A stretch of 58,217 nt of DNA from an uncultured Candidatus Saccharibacteria bacterium (GTDB lineage Bacteria; Patescibacteriota; Doudnabacteria; UBA920; 2-01-FULL-46-14), in assembly GCA_964360335.1 (NCBI GenBank), contig CAYHVH010000003.1, positions 1-58,217 of the forward strand, given 5' to 3'. Numbering within the stretch: position 1 is the stretch's first letter; the number at the start of each line of letters is the position of its first letter. Positions 3,115 through 38,517 of the stretch are shown here, piece by piece. The notes below the pieces were generated by a model. The model had not been told where the DNA came from and ran no database searches. It worked only from the letters and a program-made list of their open reading frames with translations. A program made the translations under genes and the position numbers.

Positions 3115-4416
3115 ATGGATTACCTGCAAAAAATTCTCAATAAGTTTCGTTCCTATCCCCGCCCGGCGTTTCTCCGCTTGAGTTTAAAGCTCCGAAGTCC
3201 GCAACTGACGGCTTGGGCCTTGAAATTGCTCTGCGGTAAAATAAACGATTCGGGCCGATTTACCGTGTTGTGTCTCGGGCGAAGCGTTTTTTTGGACGAC
3301 GTCAAAGCCCTGGCCGCTTTGGGCCAAAACCTGCAATATGTGGTTATTCATATCCGACACTTCAAAACCATTTTTGGCCATCTAGTAAAGAAATCCGAGA
3401 CCGAGGGACTGACCGAGAGTAATTACCATTCCCATTCCTTAAGTGAAAAGGGCAGAAACAGATATTACGCTTACCTCAAAAAAGTCCTGCCTTTTCTGCA
3501 AAAACTTATCGGTTTTGACGCTGTCCTGTCCGGCAATGTGGGGTATATCGTTCAGCAGGAAATAGCCAAAGTTTGTGAAGCAGAGCGAGTGCCGTTCATT
3601 GTTTTGCACAAAGAAGGGATGGACGCCTTTGGTTACGTCCATACGTATGACGGCCAAAAGTTTATCGGAGCGCGGATGTTGTTCGGTAATCAGAAGATGA
3701 GAGACTCGCTTTTGGCCATGAAGATGCCGGGTTTGACCGAGGACAAGGCCCGCGTGGTAGGCATGCCGCGATTTGATTTTTATCACAGTCAAAACGACCA
3801 CAGTCCCAAGAAGCAGGTTGTGTTCTTTTCGTTTTTTCCGCAAGATCGGCTCATCGCTTCGATTTCCGAGGGAAAAAATCTCCAGCAGGCCAAAGAAGCG
3901 TATGCGAATTTTCATAAGCTGGTTATGGAATTTGCCTTGCGCCACCCCGAGATAAAGGTCACCATCAAAACCAAGGCGGCGGCGTATTTTGTTCAATACG
4001 TAAAAGATATTTTGCAAGCCAGTTTCCCAGAGGGGATACCGAATTTATTCATAACTAATTCAATTAATCCTTTTGAGTTGATCAGGAATTCCGACGCCGT
4101 CGTTTCTTTCAATTCCACGACTTTGATTGAGGGGCTTCTGGGGGGGAAAATCATAATTTCTCCGGATTTTCGAGATTTGATTTCCGATACGTCATGGAAT
4201 TTTTTTGCGAGCTACCCCGATTTAATCCATTACGTCAAGAATGAGTCAGAACTCGAAGACCGCCTCTTGCATCCGCGGAAATATTCTGAATATGACCCTT
4301 CGCGAAAACAAGCATTTTTGAAGGAAGTCATATTTCTCCCGGACGGAAAGGCCAGTCTCCGTACCGAATTAGAGATTCTCGGAGCTATTAAGGAATATCA
4401 GACCAAAATCTCATGA
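3115..4416 (+). CDS. hypothetical protein, possibly a capsule/teichoic-type glycosyl- or glycerophosphotransferase
   Basis: 433 aa in the glycan operon. The C-terminal VVSFNSTTLIEGLLGGKIII resembles the nucleotide-sugar binding end of such transferases. This is weak pattern recognition only. Confidence 0.45.
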   Translation: MDYLQKILNKFRSYPRPAFLRLSLKLRSPQLTAWALKLLCGKINDSGRFTVLCLGRSVFLDDVKALAALGQNLQYVVIHIRHFKTIFGHLVKKSETEGLTESNYHSHSLSEKGRNRYYAYLKKVLPFLQKLIGFDAVLSGNVGYIVQQEIAKVCEAERVPFIVLHKEGMDAFGYVHTYDGQKFIGARMLFGNQKMRDSLLAMKMPGLTEDKARVVGMPRFDFYHSQNDHSPKKQVVFFSFFPQDRLIASISEGKNLQQAKEAYANFHKLVMEFALRHPEIKVTIKTKAAAYFVQYVKDILQASFPEGIPNLFITNSINPFELIRNSDAVVSFNSTTLIEGLLGGKIIISPDFRDLISDTSWNFFASYPDLIHYVKNESELEDRLLHPRKYSEYDPSRKQAFLKEVIFLPDGKASLRTELEILGAIKEYQTKIS

Positions 4417-13280: not shown

Positions 13281-13376
13281 TATAATAACAACAAGGTCAA
13301 AAATTTCGAAGCCTGAAATCCTAGTCTGCGATTGCAGGCGAAATTCCAAACAAATCTCAATAATCAAAATTCAAAA

Positions 13377-15125
13377 ATGGCTTTGGCCTCAACTGATCTG
13401 CGAAAAATTTTAGTGGATCAGAAAATCATCAAGCAGGAGGATTTCGACCAGCTGGAAAAGGAGGCAACGGATAAAAAACAGACGCTGGTCAATTATTTAG
13501 TGGTGCGCAAAATCATTCCCGAGGACAGACTGGCGGAACTGGTGAGCGAATTTTTGAAAACTCCCCTCATTGATCTCACAAAAATTAAGATTCCCCAGGA
13601 GGTCTTGAAAATCATTCCTGAACCGATCGCTCACCGTCACCAGGTTATCGCCTTTAAGAAGCGCGGGGAGGAGCTGGACTTGGCGATGACCGACCCCGAA
13701 GATCTGCAAACCCGAGAGTTCGTGAAAAAGAAAACCGGCTTTATCATCAAGCCGCATTTGGTCACGAGGACCGGTTTGGATTATGCCCTTTCCCAATACC
13801 ATAGCAGTTTGAAGGCGGAGTTTGAGAAGATTCTGACGAGCAAAAAAGCTGAAGCGCCAGTAGCCGGGGAAGCGGAGGAGGACGTGAAACTCAAAAAAAT
13901 GGCGGATGAGATTCCGGTGGTCCGGGTGGTGGACACCCTTTTGGAATACGCGATTTTCGAGGGAGCATCGGATATCCATATTGAACCGCAGGAGAAAGAA
14001 GTCACGGTGCGCTACCGGATTGACGGGATTCTCCATGACGCGATGACCTTACCAAAGATTATTCAGCCGGCTTTGGTGGCGCGCATCAAAGTGCTTTCCA
14101 ATCTCAAGATTGACGAACACCGCCTCCCGCAGGACGGGCGATTTAAAATTCAGACCGAGGAATATTATATTTCCTTCCGGGTTTCCACGATTCCGATCTT
14201 TGACGGCGAGAAAGTTGTGCTCCGGCTTTTGGATGAGGGGGCCAAAGCCTTGACCTTTGAGGAGTTGGGCTTTGCCCGAACTTCTCTGGAAATCATCAAG
14301 CGCAACCTTAGTCGCCCTCATGGCATGACCCTTATCACCGGACCGACTGGTTCCGGCAAATCCACCACTCTGTACACCATCCTGACCAAACTCAATACCA
14401 AAGGAGTAAATATCAGCACCATTGAGGATCCGATTGAGTACCGGATCATGGGGGTAAACCAGATGCAGGTCAATCCTAAAATTGGTCTGACTTTTGCTAT
14501 CGGTTTGCGAGCCTTGCTCCGCCAAGACCCGAATATCATTATGATCGGGGAAATTCGGGATTTGGAAACCTCGGAAGAGGCGGTGCACGCCGCGATGACC
14601 GGTCATATTGTCCTTTCGACCTTGCATACCAACAATGCGGCGGGGGCCATCCCGCGACTTCTGGACATCGGGGTGGAGCCATACCTCATTGCCTCTACGC
14701 TCAATACCATAGTTGGCCAGCGGCTGGTGCGGAAAGTTTGTGCTGACTGCAAAATTGCCAAAAAGCTGGATGAAAAGGAAATTCAGAGTCTCTCGACGGA
14801 TTTTAATCTCGACCACCTTTTGGAGGTGATGAAGCAGGAGCAAGTTTTGGACAAAAAAGTTAAGCATTTCCGGGATGTGGAATTTTTTGAGGGACGGGGT
14901 TGCGAGAAGTGCGGGCAGACCGGCTACCGGGGCCGGATGGGCATCTACGAGGTTTTGGATGTGACCGAAAATGTGGCCAAACTGATTTTGGCCCGGTCCA
15001 CAACCAGCCAAATTCAGGGGCAGGCCGTGAGTGAGAGGATGGTTTTGATGTGGCAGGACGGTTTCATCAAAGCCCATCTCGGTTTGACCACCATTGCCGA
15101 AGTGCTGCGGGTAACCAAGGAATAA
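13377..15125 (+). CDS. pilB: type IV pilus assembly ATPase (GspE/PilB family)
   Basis: Walker A GPTGSGKST, IIMIGEIRD, His-box TGHIVLSTLHTN and tetracysteine CADC...CEKC. The ATG at 13377 is preferred over the TTG at 13332. Confidence 0.9.
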   Translation: MALASTDLRKILVDQKIIKQEDFDQLEKEATDKKQTLVNYLVVRKIIPEDRLAELVSEFLKTPLIDLTKIKIPQEVLKIIPEPIAHRHQVIAFKKRGEELDLAMTDPEDLQTREFVKKKTGFIIKPHLVTRTGLDYALSQYHSSLKAEFEKILTSKKAEAPVAGEAEEDVKLKKMADEIPVVRVVDTLLEYAIFEGASDIHIEPQEKEVTVRYRIDGILHDAMTLPKIIQPALVARIKVLSNLKIDEHRLPQDGRFKIQTEEYYISFRVSTIPIFDGEKVVLRLLDEGAKALTFEELGFARTSLEIIKRNLSRPHGMTLITGPTGSGKSTTLYTILTKLNTKGVNISTIEDPIEYRIMGVNQMQVNPKIGLTFAIGLRALLRQDPNIIMIGEIRDLETSEEAVHAAMTGHIVLSTLHTNNAAGAIPRLLDIGVEPYLIASTLNTIVGQRLVRKVCADCKIAKKLDEKEIQSLSTDFNLDHLLEVMKQEQVLDKKVKHFRDVEFFEGRGCEKCGQTGYRGRMGIYEVLDVTENVAKLILARSTTSQIQGQAVSERMVLMWQDGFIKAHLGLTTIAEVLRVTKE

Positions 15126-15131
15126 CAAGCT

Positions 15132-16349
15132 ATGGCAGAATTTTCTTATACAGCCCGGAATCGAGAGGGGGAGGCGGTTGCTGATACCATCGAGGCGCCT
15201 TCCCGCGCGGCCGTGGGGCAACTCTTGAGGAGCCAAGGTTTGCTGCCGACCGCGATTGTTGTCAAGTCCAGAAGGGTTCTTGAGCTGGGAGCAATCCTTC
15301 CTTCGGTTTGGCGCGGGGTTTCTTTGCTCGAGCGCCTGACCTTCATCAAGAATTTATCAGTTACCATCAAAGCCGGTTTACCAGTAGCCAGAGCCCTCAA
15401 TGTTTTAGGGAAGCAGATGCCCAATCCCTATTTTCGCGGCGTAGTGGCAGAGATTGCCCACCACGTGGAAACCGGCAAAACTTTATCGGAAAGCATGGCC
15501 GCTTTTCCCAAGATTTTTTCACCGATGGTTACCAACATGGTGAAGGTTGGCGAGCAGACCGGCGATCTGGACAAAAATTTGGAATATTTGGGGTCCCAAA
15601 TCTCTCGGGATTACAATTTGATTCGCCGGACCCGGGGCGCGTTAATGTACCCGGCGGTGGTGGTGATTGCCCTGGTGCTGATTGGTTATTTGATGTTCAG
15701 CTTTGTTTTGCCGCGCCTCACGGAAACTTTCAAGGAGTTTGATACCCAATTGCCGGCCTTGACGGTCGCCATCATCAAGTTGGTTGACCTATTTTCCCAT
15801 TATTCTTTAGTGCTGTTGCTGTTCCTTTTAGCCTTGGTAGTGGGCTTTCGCTTCTGGCGGCGGACGAAAAGTGGCAAAGCGGTGACGCACAAGTTCAATC
15901 TGACGGTGCCGGTGATTGGTAAAATTGTGAAGAAGTTCAACCTCGCCCGGCTTACCATTATCTTTAGCGGGCTGTTGCGTTCCGGGATGCCCATCGTTGA
16001 GGCCTTGAAAATCACCAGCGACACCATGACCAACCTTTATTACCAGCAGGCCTTGGCCGAGGCGGCGGACAAGGTCAAAATCGGGGTGGACCTGGTGGTC
16101 GCTTTGGAGAAATACCCCAAGCTCTTTACTCCGATGGTCACCCAGATGATTCAGGTCGGGGAGGAAACAGGCACGATGGAACAAGTTTTGGCCGAGGTTT
16201 CCAATTTTTACGAAGCCGAGGTCGATGACACGGTAAAGAACCTCTCTTCGATTATTGAGCCCCTGATGGTGATGATCATTGGCGCCGTGGTTGGGGTGCT
16301 GGCCGTGGGCTTGATTTTACCAATTTATAATATCGGGCAGAATATATGA
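15132..16349 (+). CDS. pilC: type IV pilus platform protein (GspF/PilC family)
   Basis: 405 aa with two T2SSF-like repeats and three hydrophobic spans. Immediately follows pilB. Confidence 0.85.
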   Translation: MAEFSYTARNREGEAVADTIEAPSRAAVGQLLRSQGLLPTAIVVKSRRVLELGAILPSVWRGVSLLERLTFIKNLSVTIKAGLPVARALNVLGKQMPNPYFRGVVAEIAHHVETGKTLSESMAAFPKIFSPMVTNMVKVGEQTGDLDKNLEYLGSQISRDYNLIRRTRGALMYPAVVVIALVLIGYLMFSFVLPRLTETFKEFDTQLPALTVAIIKLVDLFSHYSLVLLLFLLALVVGFRFWRRTKSGKAVTHKFNLTVPVIGKIVKKFNLARLTIIFSGLLRSGMPIVEALKITSDTMTNLYYQQALAEAADKVKIGVDLVVALEKYPKLFTPMVTQMIQVGEETGTMEQVLAEVSNFYEAEVDDTVKNLSSIIEPLMVMIIGAVVGVLAVGLILPIYNIGQNI

Positions 16350-16807
16350 AAGGGTTTACCCCGTTAGAAATTTTTATTGGCCGCACTGGACTACCTCGAT
16401 GGCGCGCGAAGTCGGGGAGTGGGGAATTTCTAACGGGGTTCACTCTGATTGAAGTAATCATCGGCTTGGCTTTACTTTTGGCGACGATAAGTATTTTTGG
16501 GGTGGCCATCTCCACTTTGCCCTTGACCAAAACGGCCAGGAACCAGAATCTGGCCTACCACCTGGCGGCCAAAAAATTGGAGGAGTTGCGCAATACGCCT
16601 TTTGCGATCCTCCCCCCCGGCGGATCGTTTACTGATCCGGGACTAAGTAATCTGCCCAGTTCCACTGCCAGCCTCACCATCGCGGATTATCAGGACAGCA
16701 GCGAAATTAAACGAGCAACCGTCACCGTCAGTTGGGAAGACCAGGGAGCTGCGCGCAGCATTGAGCTCGATACCCTGATTAGCCAAGGGGGTGTTAGCCG
16801 GCCATGA
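16346..16807 (+). CDS. prepilin-type N-terminal cleavage/methylation domain protein (pseudopilin) with a 31-aa leader
   Basis: The G|FTLIEVIIGLALLL class III signal lies after residue 31. The leader contains an 84-nt palindromic insert. Confidence 0.8.
   Translation: MKGFTPLEIFIGRTGLPRWRAKSGSGEFLTGFTLIEVIIGLALLLATISIFGVAISTLPLTKTARNQNLAYHLAAKKLEELRNTPFAILPPGGSFTDPGLSNLPSSTASLTIADYQDSSEIKRATVTVSWEDQGAARSIELDTLISQGGVSRP
16355..16438. repeat. family D palindromic element (ACCCCGTTAGAAATT ... AATTTCTAACGGGGT) inserted in frame in the prepilin leader
   Basis: 15-nt perfect inverted arms at 16358-16372 and 16425-16439. It is flanked by the direct repeat GGGTTyAC. The length is 84 nt (28 codons). 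Confidence 0.85.
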
Positions 16808-17424
16808 AGATTTCTAACAGAATGAGCCAGGCCCTTACCCCGTTAAAAATTTTTGTGACCCGGAGGAAATTTCTAACCGGGTTTACTTTAGGAGAACTGA
16901 CGGTGGTGATTGCGTTATTTTCCGTGCTGATTACCGTCGGAGTCGGGATTTTCCTCTACAATAATCGTTTTTATGAGACCCAATCGGGCGAGATTTTTTC
17001 CATTACCGCCACGCGGGAGGCCTCTGACCGGATTAATGAGTATGCCCGGGCCGCGGTGGCTTTTGAGCCGAGCCGGATTTACGACGGGAGAAATTACACC
17101 ACCGGCACCCAGGTCGTCATTTTGAAATTGCCGGCGCTTGATGCCGCCGACCAGGTAATCAGTGAGAAGTTTGATTATGCGATTATCGGCTCTAATCCCT
17201 CGAATGCCAAACGATTGGAATTAATTTTGGATCCTGACGCGGTGAGCAGCCGCGGCGCGCGCCTGCTCCTTCTGTCCGAACGGCTGACCAGCATAAATTT
17301 TACCTACGATGATCCCAATTTGGCGCTAGCCAGAAAATTGAGCTACGAGATTGTGGTTACTGACATCGGCCGCAGTCCTGGTTCGGAACAGATTTTTGGT
17401 TCGGCAACTTTACGTAACAAGTAA
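16804..17424 (+). CDS. prepilin-type N-terminal domain protein (pseudopilin)
   Basis: RKFLTG|FTLGELTVVIALFSVLI, with a conserved Glu at +5. The start overlaps the previous stop. Confidence 0.7.
   Translation: MKISNRMSQALTPLKIFVTRRKFLTGFTLGELTVVIALFSVLITVGVGIFLYNNRFYETQSGEIFSITATREASDRINEYARAAVAFEPSRIYDGRNYTTGTQVVILKLPALDAADQVISEKFDYAIIGSNPSNAKRLELILDPDAVSSRGARLLLLSERLTSINFTYDDPNLALARKLSYEIVVTDIGRSPGSEQIFGSATLRNK
16837..16882. repeat. family D palindromic element (imperfect copy) in the second prepilin leader
   Basis: accccgttaaaaattt and aaatttctaaccgggt form inverted arms with two mismatches. Confidence 0.65.
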
Positions 17425-18832: not shown

Positions 18833-18885
18833 AAAATATACTGTCAGTGATGAAGAAACAAAAAATTTAGGACGAAACAATTTTG

Positions 18886-20007
18886 ATGGTGAATTTATTT
18901 CGTGAGCGCCAATTACCGCTAGGGCTTGATTTGAGCGATATTTCCCTAAAACTCATGCAGTTTAGGGAACGCGGCGGCAAATATCTCGTCCAGGCCTATG
19001 CCGATGCCCCTATCCAGAAAGACGTATTGGCCGGCGAGAAAATCAAGGATCCGGGTATGCTCATCAAAACTATCCGGCAGGCAATCGCGGCCCCGCAATT
19101 CGGAAAGGTTACGACTGACGAGGTGGTCGCCTCTATCCCAGAAACCAAATCTTTCGTGCGGGTGATTCAGATTCCCAAAATGTCGGAGGCAGAAGCCGCC
19201 GAAGCTGTGCCTTGGGAAGCGGAAGCCTATATCCCTTTACCGATGAGTCAAGTTTATCTAGATTGGGTGCTCTTGGCCCCCGCTGCTTCCGCCCTAGATT
19301 CGGGAGGCGAGAGCAGCACCGAAAAGCTGACCGTTCTGATTACTGCCGCCCCGAAGGACTATGTTGACGACCTGGTGGCGATTTTGAAGAAGGCGGGACT
19401 GCGGCCCTTGGCTTTGGAAGTGGAATCCCAGGCCACGGCCCGGAGCTTGGTGTCGCGGCCGGAGGAAGCAGTGCTAATCGCGGATATCAATACGGTGCGG
19501 ACCAGTCTCATCATCTACGACAGAGGGGCGTTGCAGTTTACTTCTTCATTGCCGATTGCCGGGAACAGTTTCACAGAAAGCCTGGTCCAGGGGCTGGATT
19601 TAGATTTTGCGCATGCGGAACAACTCAAGCGCGAAGTGGGCATTGATGAGGATAGTCAACGTGGGGCCGTAAAAAAATCCCTCGTCCCAGTTCTCAATAA
19701 CTTGCTGGAAGAAATCAAAAATACCATTCGTTTTTATGAAGAGCATTCCCGGGGGAGTGAAAAGATTTCTCGCCTTTTACTCACCGGTGGTTCCAGCAAG
19801 CTTAGGCATCTGCCGTCTTTTTTGCATGAGAAGCTCACCCGCCAAGTCGCAGAAGAACATCCCTTGCGTTCCCTGCCAGGACTGAAGGTTGAGCTTGGCA
19901 ACCCCTGGGTAAATGCCTTAAGGAAAGGGCAGACTCCGGCTTTGTCCCGGGAAGATTCTTTAAGTTACACGACAGCGATCGGCCTCGCCCTCCGGGAGCA
20001 AAAATAA
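18886..20007 (+). CDS. pilM: type IV pilus assembly protein PilM (actin-like ATPase fold)
   Basis: LGLDLSDISLKLMQF N-terminal strand and C-terminal LLLTGGSSKL. Followed by PilN/PilO-like genes. Confidence 0.7.
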   Translation: MVNLFRERQLPLGLDLSDISLKLMQFRERGGKYLVQAYADAPIQKDVLAGEKIKDPGMLIKTIRQAIAAPQFGKVTTDEVVASIPETKSFVRVIQIPKMSEAEAAEAVPWEAEAYIPLPMSQVYLDWVLLAPAASALDSGGESSTEKLTVLITAAPKDYVDDLVAILKKAGLRPLALEVESQATARSLVSRPEEAVLIADINTVRTSLIIYDRGALQFTSSLPIAGNSFTESLVQGLDLDFAHAEQLKREVGIDEDSQRGAVKKSLVPVLNNLLEEIKNTIRFYEEHSRGSEKISRLLLTGGSSKLRHLPSFLHEKLTRQVAEEHPLRSLPGLKVELGNPWVNALRKGQTPALSREDSLSYTTAIGLALREQK

Positions 20008-20570: not shown

Positions 20571-21194
20571 ATGTCTTTTTCCTCCTCCAGTCATACCGGA
20601 ATAATTCTGACCGCAGGCGGTGTCGTTGCCGGCCTCGTTTTGCTGGTAATTTTTGTGGTCTCGCCGCTGCTTCTGGACCTCGGCGCCGCCAATCTTGCCA
20701 TCCGGCAAGGCAGACAGGAACTTTCTAATCTCCAAGCGGAGATCAACAGTTACCGGGAGCTCTCTCTAGGTTTTGCGCGTTCTGCTCCGGAGCGGGAGGT
20801 TCTCCAGAAGATGTTTCCGCTGCGGGAAGAAATGGTGGGACTGGTGGAAGGTTTGGAGACTGCTGTAGAGGGCGCGGGGGCAAGCTCGAAGCTTACGATT
20901 ATCGACCGGCAGGAGCAGGAACAGGAGGGTCTGGGGCGGGGGGCCGCTACCCCCGAAATAGTGATATCCGGTCTGCGGCGGACGGAGGAGATTCCCTATC
21001 AGTTGGAGGTCGCGGGTGATTATCGGCAGCTCTTGGATTTTCTCTTGTATTTGGACAATTTAGGATTTTTGACAGAGATCCGGAAGCTCGAGGTCGTAGC
21101 CGACGCGGTCCAAAACCAGATTACCGGAGAGCCGCGTCAGAACGGGGAGGGAACCGCAAAATTGGAAGGCGTATTTTTCATAAGTAAGCCATGA
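20571..21194 (+). CDS. pilO: PilO-like pilus assembly protein (tentative)
   Basis: N-terminal TM segment, a coiled segment (QELSNLQAEINSYRE), and the position after pilN. Confidence 0.45.
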   Translation: MSFSSSSHTGIILTAGGVVAGLVLLVIFVVSPLLLDLGAANLAIRQGRQELSNLQAEINSYRELSLGFARSAPEREVLQKMFPLREEMVGLVEGLETAVEGAGASSKLTIIDRQEQEQEGLGRGAATPEIVISGLRRTEEIPYQLEVAGDYRQLLDFLLYLDNLGFLTEIRKLEVVADAVQNQITGEPRQNGEGTAKLEGVFFISKP

Positions 21195-21195
21195 G

Positions 21196-21291
21196 CCCCG
21201 TTAGACTTAGTTATTGGAATTTGTTGGAGTCTAATTTCGGGGTTGGTGATAAACTTTGTAGCCTGATAATTTTAAGAAAGGTCTAACGGGG
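21196..21291. repeat. family D-like palindromic element (ccccgttagac ... gtctaacgggg)
   Basis: 11-nt perfect inverted arms at 21196-21206 and 21281-21291. The right arm overlaps the GTG start of the next ORF. Confidence 0.6.
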
Positions 21292-21584
21292 TGAAATTTC
21301 TTGTCAGCAAGCCAAAATTGAAGGTCCGCTTGACATTTCTACTCTGGACAATTTTTGCGCTGCTGGTGCTGGGTCAGGTGCTGGCGCTTTATAAGTACTT
21401 GTACGCCGACTTCAAGGCCAGTGCTGTAAGTCCCGAGCCCCAGCCGACGGCGATTCTCCGCATTGATGAGGTAACTTCCCAGCAGGTCAAAGCGTGGTGG
21501 CAAGACCGGCAAAACTTTGAACTTCCGGCTTACAAGTTGCAGGCGGGGGATGTGGGCCGGGAAAATCCGTTCGCCGAGTATTAG
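21291..21584 (+). CDS. small membrane-anchored hypothetical protein, last gene of the pilus operon
   Basis: 97 aa with a GTG start and one TM segment (LTFLLWTIFALLVLGQVLAL). Followed by a terminator. Confidence 0.45.
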   Translation: MKFLVSKPKLKVRLTFLLWTIFALLVLGQVLALYKYLYADFKASAVSPEPQPTAILRIDEVTSQQVKAWWQDRQNFELPAYKLQAGDVGRENPFAEY

Positions 21585-21601
21585 AAATTTTCGCGCGTTG
21601 C

Positions 21602-21631
21602 AAAAAACCCGCTTTTAAAAGCGGGTTTTTT
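21602..21631. terminator. bidirectional rho-independent terminator
   Basis: aaaaaacccgc-ttttaaaa-gcgggtttttt. Confidence 0.8.
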
Positions 21632-21854
21632 GGTGGGTCGTGCAGGAATCGAACCTCTAATCCGCCTTAGGCGGACCCCTGCCCCGCCTGCCATTACCAC
21701 TGCCCCCAGTAGGTCTCGAACCTACAACCTTCTCCTTAAGAGGGAGCTGCTCTACCAATTGAGCTATGAGGGCAATGGCAGTGGCGGGCAGGTCTGCCAG
21801 CTCCGACGCTTCGGTCGGAGCCCCGACTGGGCGTCGGGGTTGAGCTAACGACCC
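21631..21854 (-). pseudogene. interrupted tRNA-Lys(UUU)-like gene: a 5' fragment and a 3' fragment with encoded CCA, separated by about 180 nt
   Basis: The minus strand starts GGGTCGTTAGCTCAA and ends GGTTCGATTCCTGCACGACCCACCA. These are complementary acceptor strands. No canonical D, anticodon or T stem can be drawn across the intervening hairpins and the nested tRNA. Confidence 0.5.
21701..21773 (-). tRNA. tRNA-Lys (anticodon CTT)
   Basis: Hand-folded cloverleaf: GCCCTCA/TGGGGGC acceptor, GCTC/GAGC D stem, loop CTCTTAA, GTAGG-TTCGAGA-CCTAC T arm. 73 nt, no encoded CCA. Confidence 0.85.
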
Positions 21855-21857
21855 GAA

Positions 21858-21929
21858 TGCCCTCGGAGGGAATCGAACCCCCACTCACAGGTCCGAAGCC
21901 TGTTGTGATATCCATTTCACCACGAGGGC
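21858..21929 (-). tRNA. tRNA-Arg (anticodon TCG)
   Basis: Hand-folded: GCCCTCG/CGAGGGC acceptor, GTGA/TCAC D stem, ACAGG-CTTCGGA-CCTGT anticodon arm, GGGGG-TTCGATT-CCCTC T arm. 72 nt. Confidence 0.85.
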
Positions 21930-38289: not shown

Positions 38290-38361
38290 GGTGCCCGAAG
38301 GGAATCGAACCCTCGTGACCGCCTCCACAGGGCGGCGTTCTACCATTGAACTACGGGCACC
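38290..38361 (-). tRNA. tRNA-His (anticodon GTG) with encoded G-1
   Basis: G-GTGCCCG...CCGCC-CTGTGGA-GGCGG...GAGGG-TTCGATT-CCCTT-CGGGCAC-C. Confidence 0.85.
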
Positions 38362-38442
38362 ACGTCGCTTTATCAATTTTGAATTTTGTCGCCCCTCCGG
38401 GAGATCTGCCGTGGGCATGGCATTTTAAGTTGTGAATTTTTA

Positions 38443-38517
38443 TGGTACCCCCACGAGGAATCGAACCTCGATCCGCGGCTTAGAAGGCCACTGTTCTATC
38501 CGTTGAACTATGGGGGC
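38443..38517 (-). tRNA. tRNA-Arg (anticodon TCT) with encoded CCA
   Basis: GCCCCCA-TA-GTTC-AACGGATA-GAAC-A-GTGGC-CTTCTAA-GCCGC-GGAT-CGAGG-TTCGATT-CCTCG-TGGGGGT-A-CCA. Confidence 0.85.

Follow-up and report, generated by a model that had tools for sequence, protein, structure and literature searches.

A palindromic insertion in the leader of a PilV-like prepilin gene as a probable copy of a miniature transposable element family found on many metagenome contigs

The pilus operon on contig CAYHVH010000003.1 of an uncultured Candidatus Saccharibacteria bacterium (assembly GCA_964360335.1) poses the question of how a perfect palindrome came to lie inside the leader of a minor prepilin gene, and what it means for the protein. 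The stretch analysed, hereafter called the window, comprises 58,217 nucleotides. We propose that the palindrome is a non-autonomous transposable element, namely a MITE (miniature inverted-repeat transposable element), and one copy of a family that is found on many groundwater and sediment metagenome contigs. We assign this reading a probability of about 0.9. The structure is not specific to pilins, and what is seen here is the in-frame insertion of a MITE in a prepilin leader. The hosts of the element are probably members of the candidate phyla radiation (CPR, Patescibacteria).

The palindrome and its site in the prepilin gene

The gene encodes a PilV-like protein with the N-terminus MKGFTPLEIFIGRTGLPRWRAKSGSGEFLTG/FTLIEV, where the slash marks the predicted cleavage site, and the cleavage motif G31/FTLIE begins at position 16436. 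Gly(-1), Phe(+1) and Glu(+5) are present and are followed by a hydrophobic helix (G31/FTLIEVIIGLALLLATISIFGV). Together with the location in a pilBC operon and with pilB, pilC and pilM as neighbours, these features are those of a type IV prepilin. The two NCBIfam profiles that match the protein, PilV (TIGR02523, E 3e-5) and GFxxxE (TIGR02532, 15.4 bits against a cutoff of 16.3), both align only from residue 30-31 onwards. A Pfam scan did not call N_methyl on the window prepilin, whereas its orthologues do carry PF07963. The nearest named relatives of the operon are metagenome-assembled genomes (MAGs) of Candidatus Doudnabacteria and MAGs labelled as Saccharibacteria, both CPR bacteria, and the window itself resembles MAGs of the Candidatus Doudnabacteria type.

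From 16346 to 16456 the gene reads ATG AAA GGG TTT ACC CCG TTA GAA ATT ... GAA TTT CTA ACG GGG TTC ACT CTG ATT GAA GTA. As the original prediction had stated, the arms ACCCCGTTAGAAATT (16358-16372) and AATTTCTAACGGGGT (16425-16439) are perfect 15-nt complements; when extended, they reach 22 nt at 86%. They form the top-ranked inverted repeat with arms no more than 150 nt apart in the entire window, where by our own arithmetic about 0.008 perfect 15-nt inverted repeats of this spacing are expected by chance. Folding of the mRNA, a check proposed together with the original prediction, gave -50.8 kcal/mol for positions 16330-16470 (z = -3.75), and none of 200 shuffled sequences was equally stable. 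The 80-nt element folded alone reaches -36.4 kcal/mol.

The palindrome is flanked by the direct repeats GGGTTTAC (16352-16359) and GGGTTCAC (16436-16443), which lie 84 nt, or 28 codons, apart. The original prediction took this entire octamer, GGGTTyAC, as the target duplication. The direct repeat is real, but only four of its eight bases, TTTA on the left and TTCA on the right, represent duplicated target. The remainder consists of a GGG, which is the gene's Gly codon in the left copy and belongs to the element in the right copy, and of a single matching C; both the right-hand GGG and the left-hand C are terminal bases of the element. Copy 1, as we call this insertion, thus lies at the TTTA within GGG-TTT-ACx, which encodes the Gly-Phe-Thr of the prepilin cleavage motif. 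The original MKGFT is kept at the N-terminus, and the element's GGG together with the second TTTA/TTCA rebuilds a complete G/FTLIE downstream. Element and duplication add 84 nt (28 codons), in frame and free of stop codons, which bears out the proposed growth of the leader from 3 to 31 residues. Excising the 84 nt between 16355 and 16438 restores M-K-G-F-T-L-I-E-V, again as predicted, and most orthologues share this start.

A comparison with orthologues, likewise suggested with the original prediction, revealed empty sites at both the protein and the DNA level. We compared 33 pilin homologues besides the window's own protein, and a scan of genome contigs with the pilin alignment returned six loci. 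Proteins P0004, P0005, P0007, P0012, P0015 and P0017 begin with MK/GF[TS]L[IV]E. At the DNA level, the loci L132, L136 and L006 read ATATGAA[AG]GG[AGT]TT[CT][TA]CC... with the same ATGA overlap with pilC and no insert. The closest orthologue (P0002 on L135, 71% identity) is also empty at the copy-1 site. Presence/absence polymorphism is therefore seen at orthologous sites, between orthologues that are all at most 71% identical, and the filled allele is present on three contigs. In a neighbour-joining tree of the mature parts, the filled genes (the window gene, P0006 and P0013) are each nested among empty ones, and the interiors of the three insertions are mutually unrelated. This means that the G-F-T site, with its TTTA, was struck independently on several occasions. 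Independent insertions at the G-F-T site are also present in the unrelated pilins of L020 and L049.

A family of elements with a four-base target duplication

To define the family, metagenomes were scanned with both arms (CCCGTTARAAAT N30-60 ATTTYTAACGGG). The arms were found on at least 120 contigs (L012-L131) of groundwater and sediment metagenomes, in flanks that bear no relation to one another and, for the most part, none to pilins. The terminal inverted repeats are about 13 nt long (YCCCGTTAGAAAT / ATTTCTAACGGGR), and with this search pattern the cores measure 54-83 nt. More than one copy is present on many of the contigs, in part adjacent or nested, with up to five in less than 5 kb; dense clusters with apparently nested or adjacent copies occur on L025, L052, L081, L130 and L131.

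The flanks of 122 copies define the borders of the element. Positions -1 and +1 are complementary in 94% of them (C..G in 82, T..A in 24), and therefore both bases belong to the element. The next four bases on the left, positions -5 to -2, recur on the right at +2 to +5 with 80-86% identity per position, compared with about 25% in other registers. This four-base repeat is perfect in 81 of the 122 copies and matches at three of four bases in 18 more. Where the usual A or T is replaced, the two sides co-vary (G/G in 16 of 21 cases, C/C in 14 of 20). The consensus is T-N-N-A, with TGAA, TTCA, TTTA and TAAA as the commonest sites. The flank pattern is a true 4-bp target-site duplication. In combination with the empty sites of the orthologues, the presence of such duplications in at least 120 unrelated contexts supports the view, already put forward in the original prediction, that a hairpin element was inserted with duplication of its target.

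Between the arms, little is conserved. Complementarity falls to chance level past 12-13 nt, and the interiors, which are unrelated between genomes, fold no better than shuffled sequences (-20.5 versus -20.3 kcal/mol) and show neither covariation nor additional structure. Hence the conserved hairpin is no more than the pair of terminal inverted repeats, which fits a transposon end recognised by a protein rather than a structured RNA. A search of Rfam at gathering and permissive thresholds returned no family at gathering score; the best sub-threshold hits were eukaryotic RNAs with E >= 0.14.

The element thus combines the hallmarks of a MITE: it is short and lacks a transposase gene, its terminal inverted repeats are conserved, its target duplication has a fixed length of 4 bp, and it occurs in many unrelated contexts. 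Its mobility would depend on a DDE transposase that acts in trans on the inverted repeats and makes a 4-bp staggered cut. The 4-bp duplication and the ends starting with CC would be compatible with families such as IS1380, IS5 or IS701, which we take as a lead and not as a test. In the fetched DNA, an IS1380-type DDE transposase gene lies on L030 (10033-11427; Pfam DDE_Tnp_1_4, 4e-34), 450 nt from a solo arm with one mismatch. As a partner of the element it is a weak lead, and no matching inverted repeats were found at its ends in the fetched DNA. Distant arm pairs were rejected as autonomous elements: they enclose only ordinary genes that are flanked by separate copies.

Several points weigh against our interpretation. 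A search of 865 kb of fetched loci yielded no autonomous insertion sequence that carries these inverted repeats. The interiors are unusually diverse for a single MITE family. Among the relatives, the nearest of which is 71% identical, no strain pair is filled and precisely empty at the copy-1 locus. The CPR host range is drawn from a few named MAGs and not from the taxonomy of the metagenome contigs. Finally, a search of the 58-kb window for a prepilin peptidase motif, by a crude regular expression only, found none.

Three further copies (L137-L139) come from IMG/VR, on two contigs classed as viral, and their target duplications match at three of four bases. These contigs could be phages of the bacteria that carry the element, or misclassified cellular DNA.

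Proposed translation through the insert and alternative explanations

Eight copies occupy a G-F-T site: those in window genes 1 and 2, L003 gene 2, L002 gene 1, L001 gene 1, L008 gene 2, L020 and L049. In seven of the eight, the length is a multiple of three, compared with an expected third (P ~0.003, our own binomial calculation), and six of these are open from an upstream start. L049 has an open frame without a canonical upstream start. The insertion in L002 gene 1 is out of frame and contains a stop, but its interior supplies an in-frame ATG. Copies that abut a rebuilt start codon serve as a control and have no frame bias; the length is divisible by three in 9 of 43, and 7 of 36 can be read from the old ATG. 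The preservation of frame in seven of the eight G-F-T copies therefore argues for translation through the insert and against splicing or ribosomal bypass. In the window, ATG 16346 is the sole in-frame start codon upstream of Gly31.

We propose the following sequence of events. Translation would begin at the old ATG 16346, coupled to the stop codon of pilC, and continue across the element. Prepilin peptidase would then cleave after Gly31, so that the element-encoded peptide is presumably removed together with the leader. Type IVb and other prepilins naturally have long leaders of about 15-30 residues, which shows that prepilin peptidases are able to process leaders of such length. Since the mature pilin would be unaltered once the leader is removed, the insertion is expected to be nearly neutral. 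It is probably tolerated in the leader, a part of the protein that is normally cut off. The hairpin of about -36 kcal/mol probably lowers initiation somewhat, which would be a side effect and not a designed switch.

At G-F-T sites, the left junction (window 16352-16369; L003 3170-3190; L020) encodes G-F-T-P-L-E. It resembles G/FxxxE with Glu(+5), without the hydrophobic helix typical of a real cleavage site, and may act as a decoy site for prepilin peptidase.

The placement of the family bears on the question of whether the hairpin is more than a passenger. Only 8 of 123 copies lie inside genes, where about 50 would be expected at random positions, and 87 are intergenic or closed in every frame. 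The start codon of an open reading frame (ORF) is abutted by 43 of the 123, typically in the form ATGAA[C/T]-element-[G/A]TGAA; here, ORFs of at least 80 codons were counted, or of at least 30 codons if they run off the contig end. When the element is excised computationally, the insertion falls on the first start codon of such an ORF at 30 of 122 sites, whereas random sites with matching 4-mers would give about 1.7. Roughly one quarter to one third of the family copies lie precisely on a start codon, with a TGAA duplication, and restore a GTG or ATG. The arms are free of stops in two of three frames; otherwise the old frame stops within about 10 nt of the new start or overlaps it (GTGA). In non-fused frames, the old frame is closed by a TAA within the right arm or by a TGA overlapping the new GTG. 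This enrichment may reflect targeting or survivorship in gene-dense genomes.

Reading from the old ATG across the element yields the recurrent pseudo-N-termini MNPVRN...ISNGV(K), for example on L054, L100, L107, L117 and L121. Gene callers likely annotate these read-throughs as real protein starts.

It is conceivable, though in our view doubtful, that the family is built for translation starts: the terminal purine of the element and the TG of a duplicated TGAA rebuild GTG or ATG, and the copies would serve as portable hairpin units by which translation is re-coupled or attenuated. The three copies and the remnant in the pilus operon, including the leader insertions, would then tune the amounts of minor pilins. 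The related proposal for the pilus operon, that the hairpin is or has become a selected cis-regulatory device, appears unlikely. Here, the mRNA stem-loop would gate or attenuate translation of minor pilins or set their ratio to PilB/PilC. The original prediction had suggested that the hairpin could gate pilin expression. An effect on initiation is physically plausible for a stem of this stability that sets in 13-14 nt past the A of the AUG (16346), and both the three copies and one remnant that lie no more than 5 kb from a single pilus operon and the strong enrichment of the family at translation starts could be taken in the same sense. The comparative data give gating no support, however. The insertion is patchy among orthologues, with most sites empty; the arms of copy 2 have decayed and its fold is just -9.7 kcal/mol; gene 2 of L002 and L004 has lost the left arm and loop, both of which the sister contigs L003 and L005 retain; and the interior lacks covariation and extra structure. 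Survivorship in gene-dense genomes can explain the start-codon enrichment as well. From the sequences compared, this pattern of patchy and independent insertions, decayed copies and strain-level arm deletion looks like that of a selfish element that survives where it is harmless.

If the palindrome is a mobile element, it might also move as a single-stranded DNA hairpin by means of an HUH/Y1 enzyme, in the manner of IS200/IS605-derived PATEs or REP/RAYT, and insert 3' of TTAC. The element is hairpin-shaped, and in the pilin copies TTAC closes the left flank and TTAC/TCAC the element, which made an IS608-like insertion attractive as long as these copies alone were considered. Across the 122 copies, however, the flanks carry a true and variable 4-bp duplication (TGAA, TTCA, TTTA, TAAA, CTCG and others) instead of a fixed tetranucleotide, which makes this route very improbable. 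We give hardly any credence to the idea that the palindrome is immobile and arose by a local replication template switch, as an inverted duplication of leader codons. The right arm does overlap the codons immediately before the cleavage site, and at the same site the variants on L001 and L008 carry other arms. Against this, identical 12-13-nt arms recur in at least 120 contexts outside pilins, where every copy has a 4-bp duplication of its own, and the left flank is a direct and not an inverted copy of TTTA. Equally far-fetched is the notion that the 84 nt stay untranslated through intron-like removal, or, in the manner of T4 gene 60, through ribosome hopping between the matching codons GGG TTT and GGG TTC that flank the hairpin: no stop codon follows the supposed take-off site, frame preservation and open frames would be needless in a skipped segment, the sole out-of-frame copy (L002) gained an internal in-frame ATG, and Rfam returned no ribozyme or intron family.

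An integron attC site was also considered and rejected. The attC consensus has RYYYAAC on its 5' side and GTTRRRY on its 3' side, without target duplication. In the palindrome, the core order is reversed (GTTAGAA ... TTCTAAC), the seventh base misfits, and target duplications are present.

Further copies, known systems and implications

The window contains three copies of the element and one solo-arm remnant, which cluster within 5 kb of the pilus operon (Table 1).

Table 1. Coordinates of the element copies, their target duplications and the pilus genes in the window
Feature	Position	Strand	Evidence and remarks
pilB-type assembly ATPase, opens the pilus operon context	13332..15125	+	Pfam T2SSE 3e-125, MshEN
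pilC-type platform protein	15132..16349	+	Pfam T2SSF 8e-60; TGA stop overlaps pilin ATG (ATGA)
PilV-like minor prepilin gene, 153 aa, copy 1 in leader	16346..16807	+	ORF, NCBIfam
Left target-site duplication TTTA, in Phe-Thr codons of original MKGFT	16355..16358	+	Flank statistics, 122 copies
MITE-like element copy 1, 80 nt	16359..16438	.	Terminal inverted repeats 16359-16372 / 16425-16438; 52-nt unstructured interior
Right target-site duplication TTCA, one substitution vs TTTA	16439..16442	+	Flank statistics, sequence
Second pilin-like gene, 206 aa, G/FTLGE at 16879; holds copy 2 and solo-arm remnant	16804..17424	+	Sequence, NCBIfam
Solo right-arm remnant ATTTCTAACAGA	16810..16821	.	Between ATGAAG and gene 2's original ATGAGC start
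Element copy 2, 44 nt, degenerate (2 arm mismatches)	16838..16881	.	Flanks CTTA (16834-16837) / TTTA (16882-16885)
Element copy 3, 96 nt, variant arms CCCGTTAGAC/GTCTAACGGG	21196..21291	.	Duplication TGAG (21192-21195) / TGAA (21292-21295)

Copy 2 occupies the G-F-T site of the second pilin-like gene, which scores 14.0 bits with the NCBIfam GFxxxE profile, under the cutoff of 16.3, and is followed by a gene for a 454-aa protein and by pilM (18883-20007). The terminal GGG of copy 2 now provides Gly(-1), and to its left the original MSKGFT has drifted to MSQAL. In the orthologues L135 and L136, the corresponding gene starts with ATGAG[CT]AA[AG]GGGTTCAC. A remnant like that of gene 2 lies at the start codon of L135 gene 1 (L135 154-200, ATGAAG-ATTTATAACGGGG-TGAAG), and the two are now translated as MKISN.. 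and MKIYNGV.... These solo arms at start codons (window 16804-16827 and L135) look, from their sequence, like relics of older insertions after internal deletion. Copy 3 lies in the ATGA overlap between a gene for 207 aa and a gene for 97 aa and folds at -32.0 kcal/mol. The upstream gene retains its TGA, and the GTG start of the downstream gene (21291) consists of the last G of the element and the TG of the duplication.

Relatives of the operon vary in the same region. The near-identical contigs L002-L005 all encode P0006 exactly and differ in gene 2: L003 and L005 hold a full copy, and in L002 and L004 the left arm and interior have been deleted between two TAAGG repeats. A further copy lies in the pilus operon of a relative (L002 3447-3521), between a 453-aa gene and pilM. 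Inserts with variant arms, single examples in each case, occupy the same TTTA site in L001 (ACCCCGTCACC) and L008 (ACCCAGCACCAC). They look like related subfamilies of the element, and no further copies of these variant arms were found in the fetched DNA. Two matches to the L001 arm pattern on viral contigs were discarded, as they lie in sequence of 68% GC and look like chance.

Leaders of this kind also vary by other means. On L001 (6001-6050), a short tandem repeat of the ATCAAA type lies in the leader and encodes KISKIKNQKSKI, and on L009 (~3940-4000) a tandem duplication (gagccatcagctac x2) directly precedes the cleavage site. Elsewhere in the window, a perfect palindrome of 16+16 nt (CAAAAAACCCGCTTTT/AAAAGCGGGTTTTTTG, 21601-21632) adjoins a tRNA gene pair (21701-21929) and looks like a bidirectional terminator; a second tRNA gene pair is located at 38290-38517.

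In-frame insertions of MITEs or Rickettsia palindromic elements (RPEs) in genes are well known (PMC10969869, PMC3184786). According to the accounts of Ogata et al. 2000 in PMC10969869 and PMC3184786, RPEs are about 100-150 bp long, confined to Rickettsia and mostly internal to proteins. The element described here resembles RPEs in that a short palindromic repeat lies in frame within a protein gene and is translated as an extra peptide without destroying the protein. RPEs are not known to be defined by short inverted repeats and a target duplication. In contrast, our element combines inverted repeats of 13 nt with a duplication of 4 bp and occurs for the most part between genes or at their starts; in the prepilin gene it lies in a leader that is presumably removed by cleavage.

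Classical bacterial MITEs (Neisseria Correia elements, pneumococcal RUP/BOX/SPRITE, ERIC) are likewise non-autonomous and multi-copy, with terminal inverted repeats and target duplications; they also form mRNA hairpins and at times fuse to the 5' or 3' ends of ORFs (PMC10969869, PMC3184786). The present family differs from them in sequence and hosts, in its 4-bp T-N-N-A duplication, in its extremely variable interiors and in the large share of copies that sit on start codons and rebuild them. Correia elements use a TA duplication. PATEs and REP/RAYT are comparable as small hairpin-forming repeats that spread in compact prokaryotic genomes, but they insert without target duplication beside a fixed short motif, while this family generates a variable 4-bp duplication. 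In the literature searched, we found no relevant account of MITEs in CPR, Patescibacteria or Parcubacteria.

At the protein level, the product resembles long-leader prepilins, with a long hydrophilic leader that ends in Gly(-1) and is followed by a hydrophobic N-terminus with Glu(+5). The long leaders of type IVb and other such prepilins are ancestral in their families, however, whereas the window leader is a recent add-on in a short-leader family whose ancestral form is MK/GF. T4 gene 60 and the mitochondrial byp elements share with copy 1 a hairpin insert between matching codons of a coding sequence; unlike these, copy 1 lacks a stop behind the take-off codon, and seven of eight copies keep the frame, which means that the segment is read and not skipped.

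Taken together, the element reveals no new mechanism. For genome annotation, it accounts for odd long N-termini (MNPVRN...ISNGV, GFTPLEI...EFLTG) and for mis-called starts in many of the metagenome ORFs that bear it. With regard to mobile elements, it represents a MITE family whose inverted repeats are constant across very divergent genomes and which, in genomes that are very gene-dense, persists chiefly at start codons and in a leader that is ordinarily removed by cleavage. For pilus biology, the filled and empty alleles constitute a natural experiment on the length and the degree of arbitrariness that a class III leader can reach while processing is retained.

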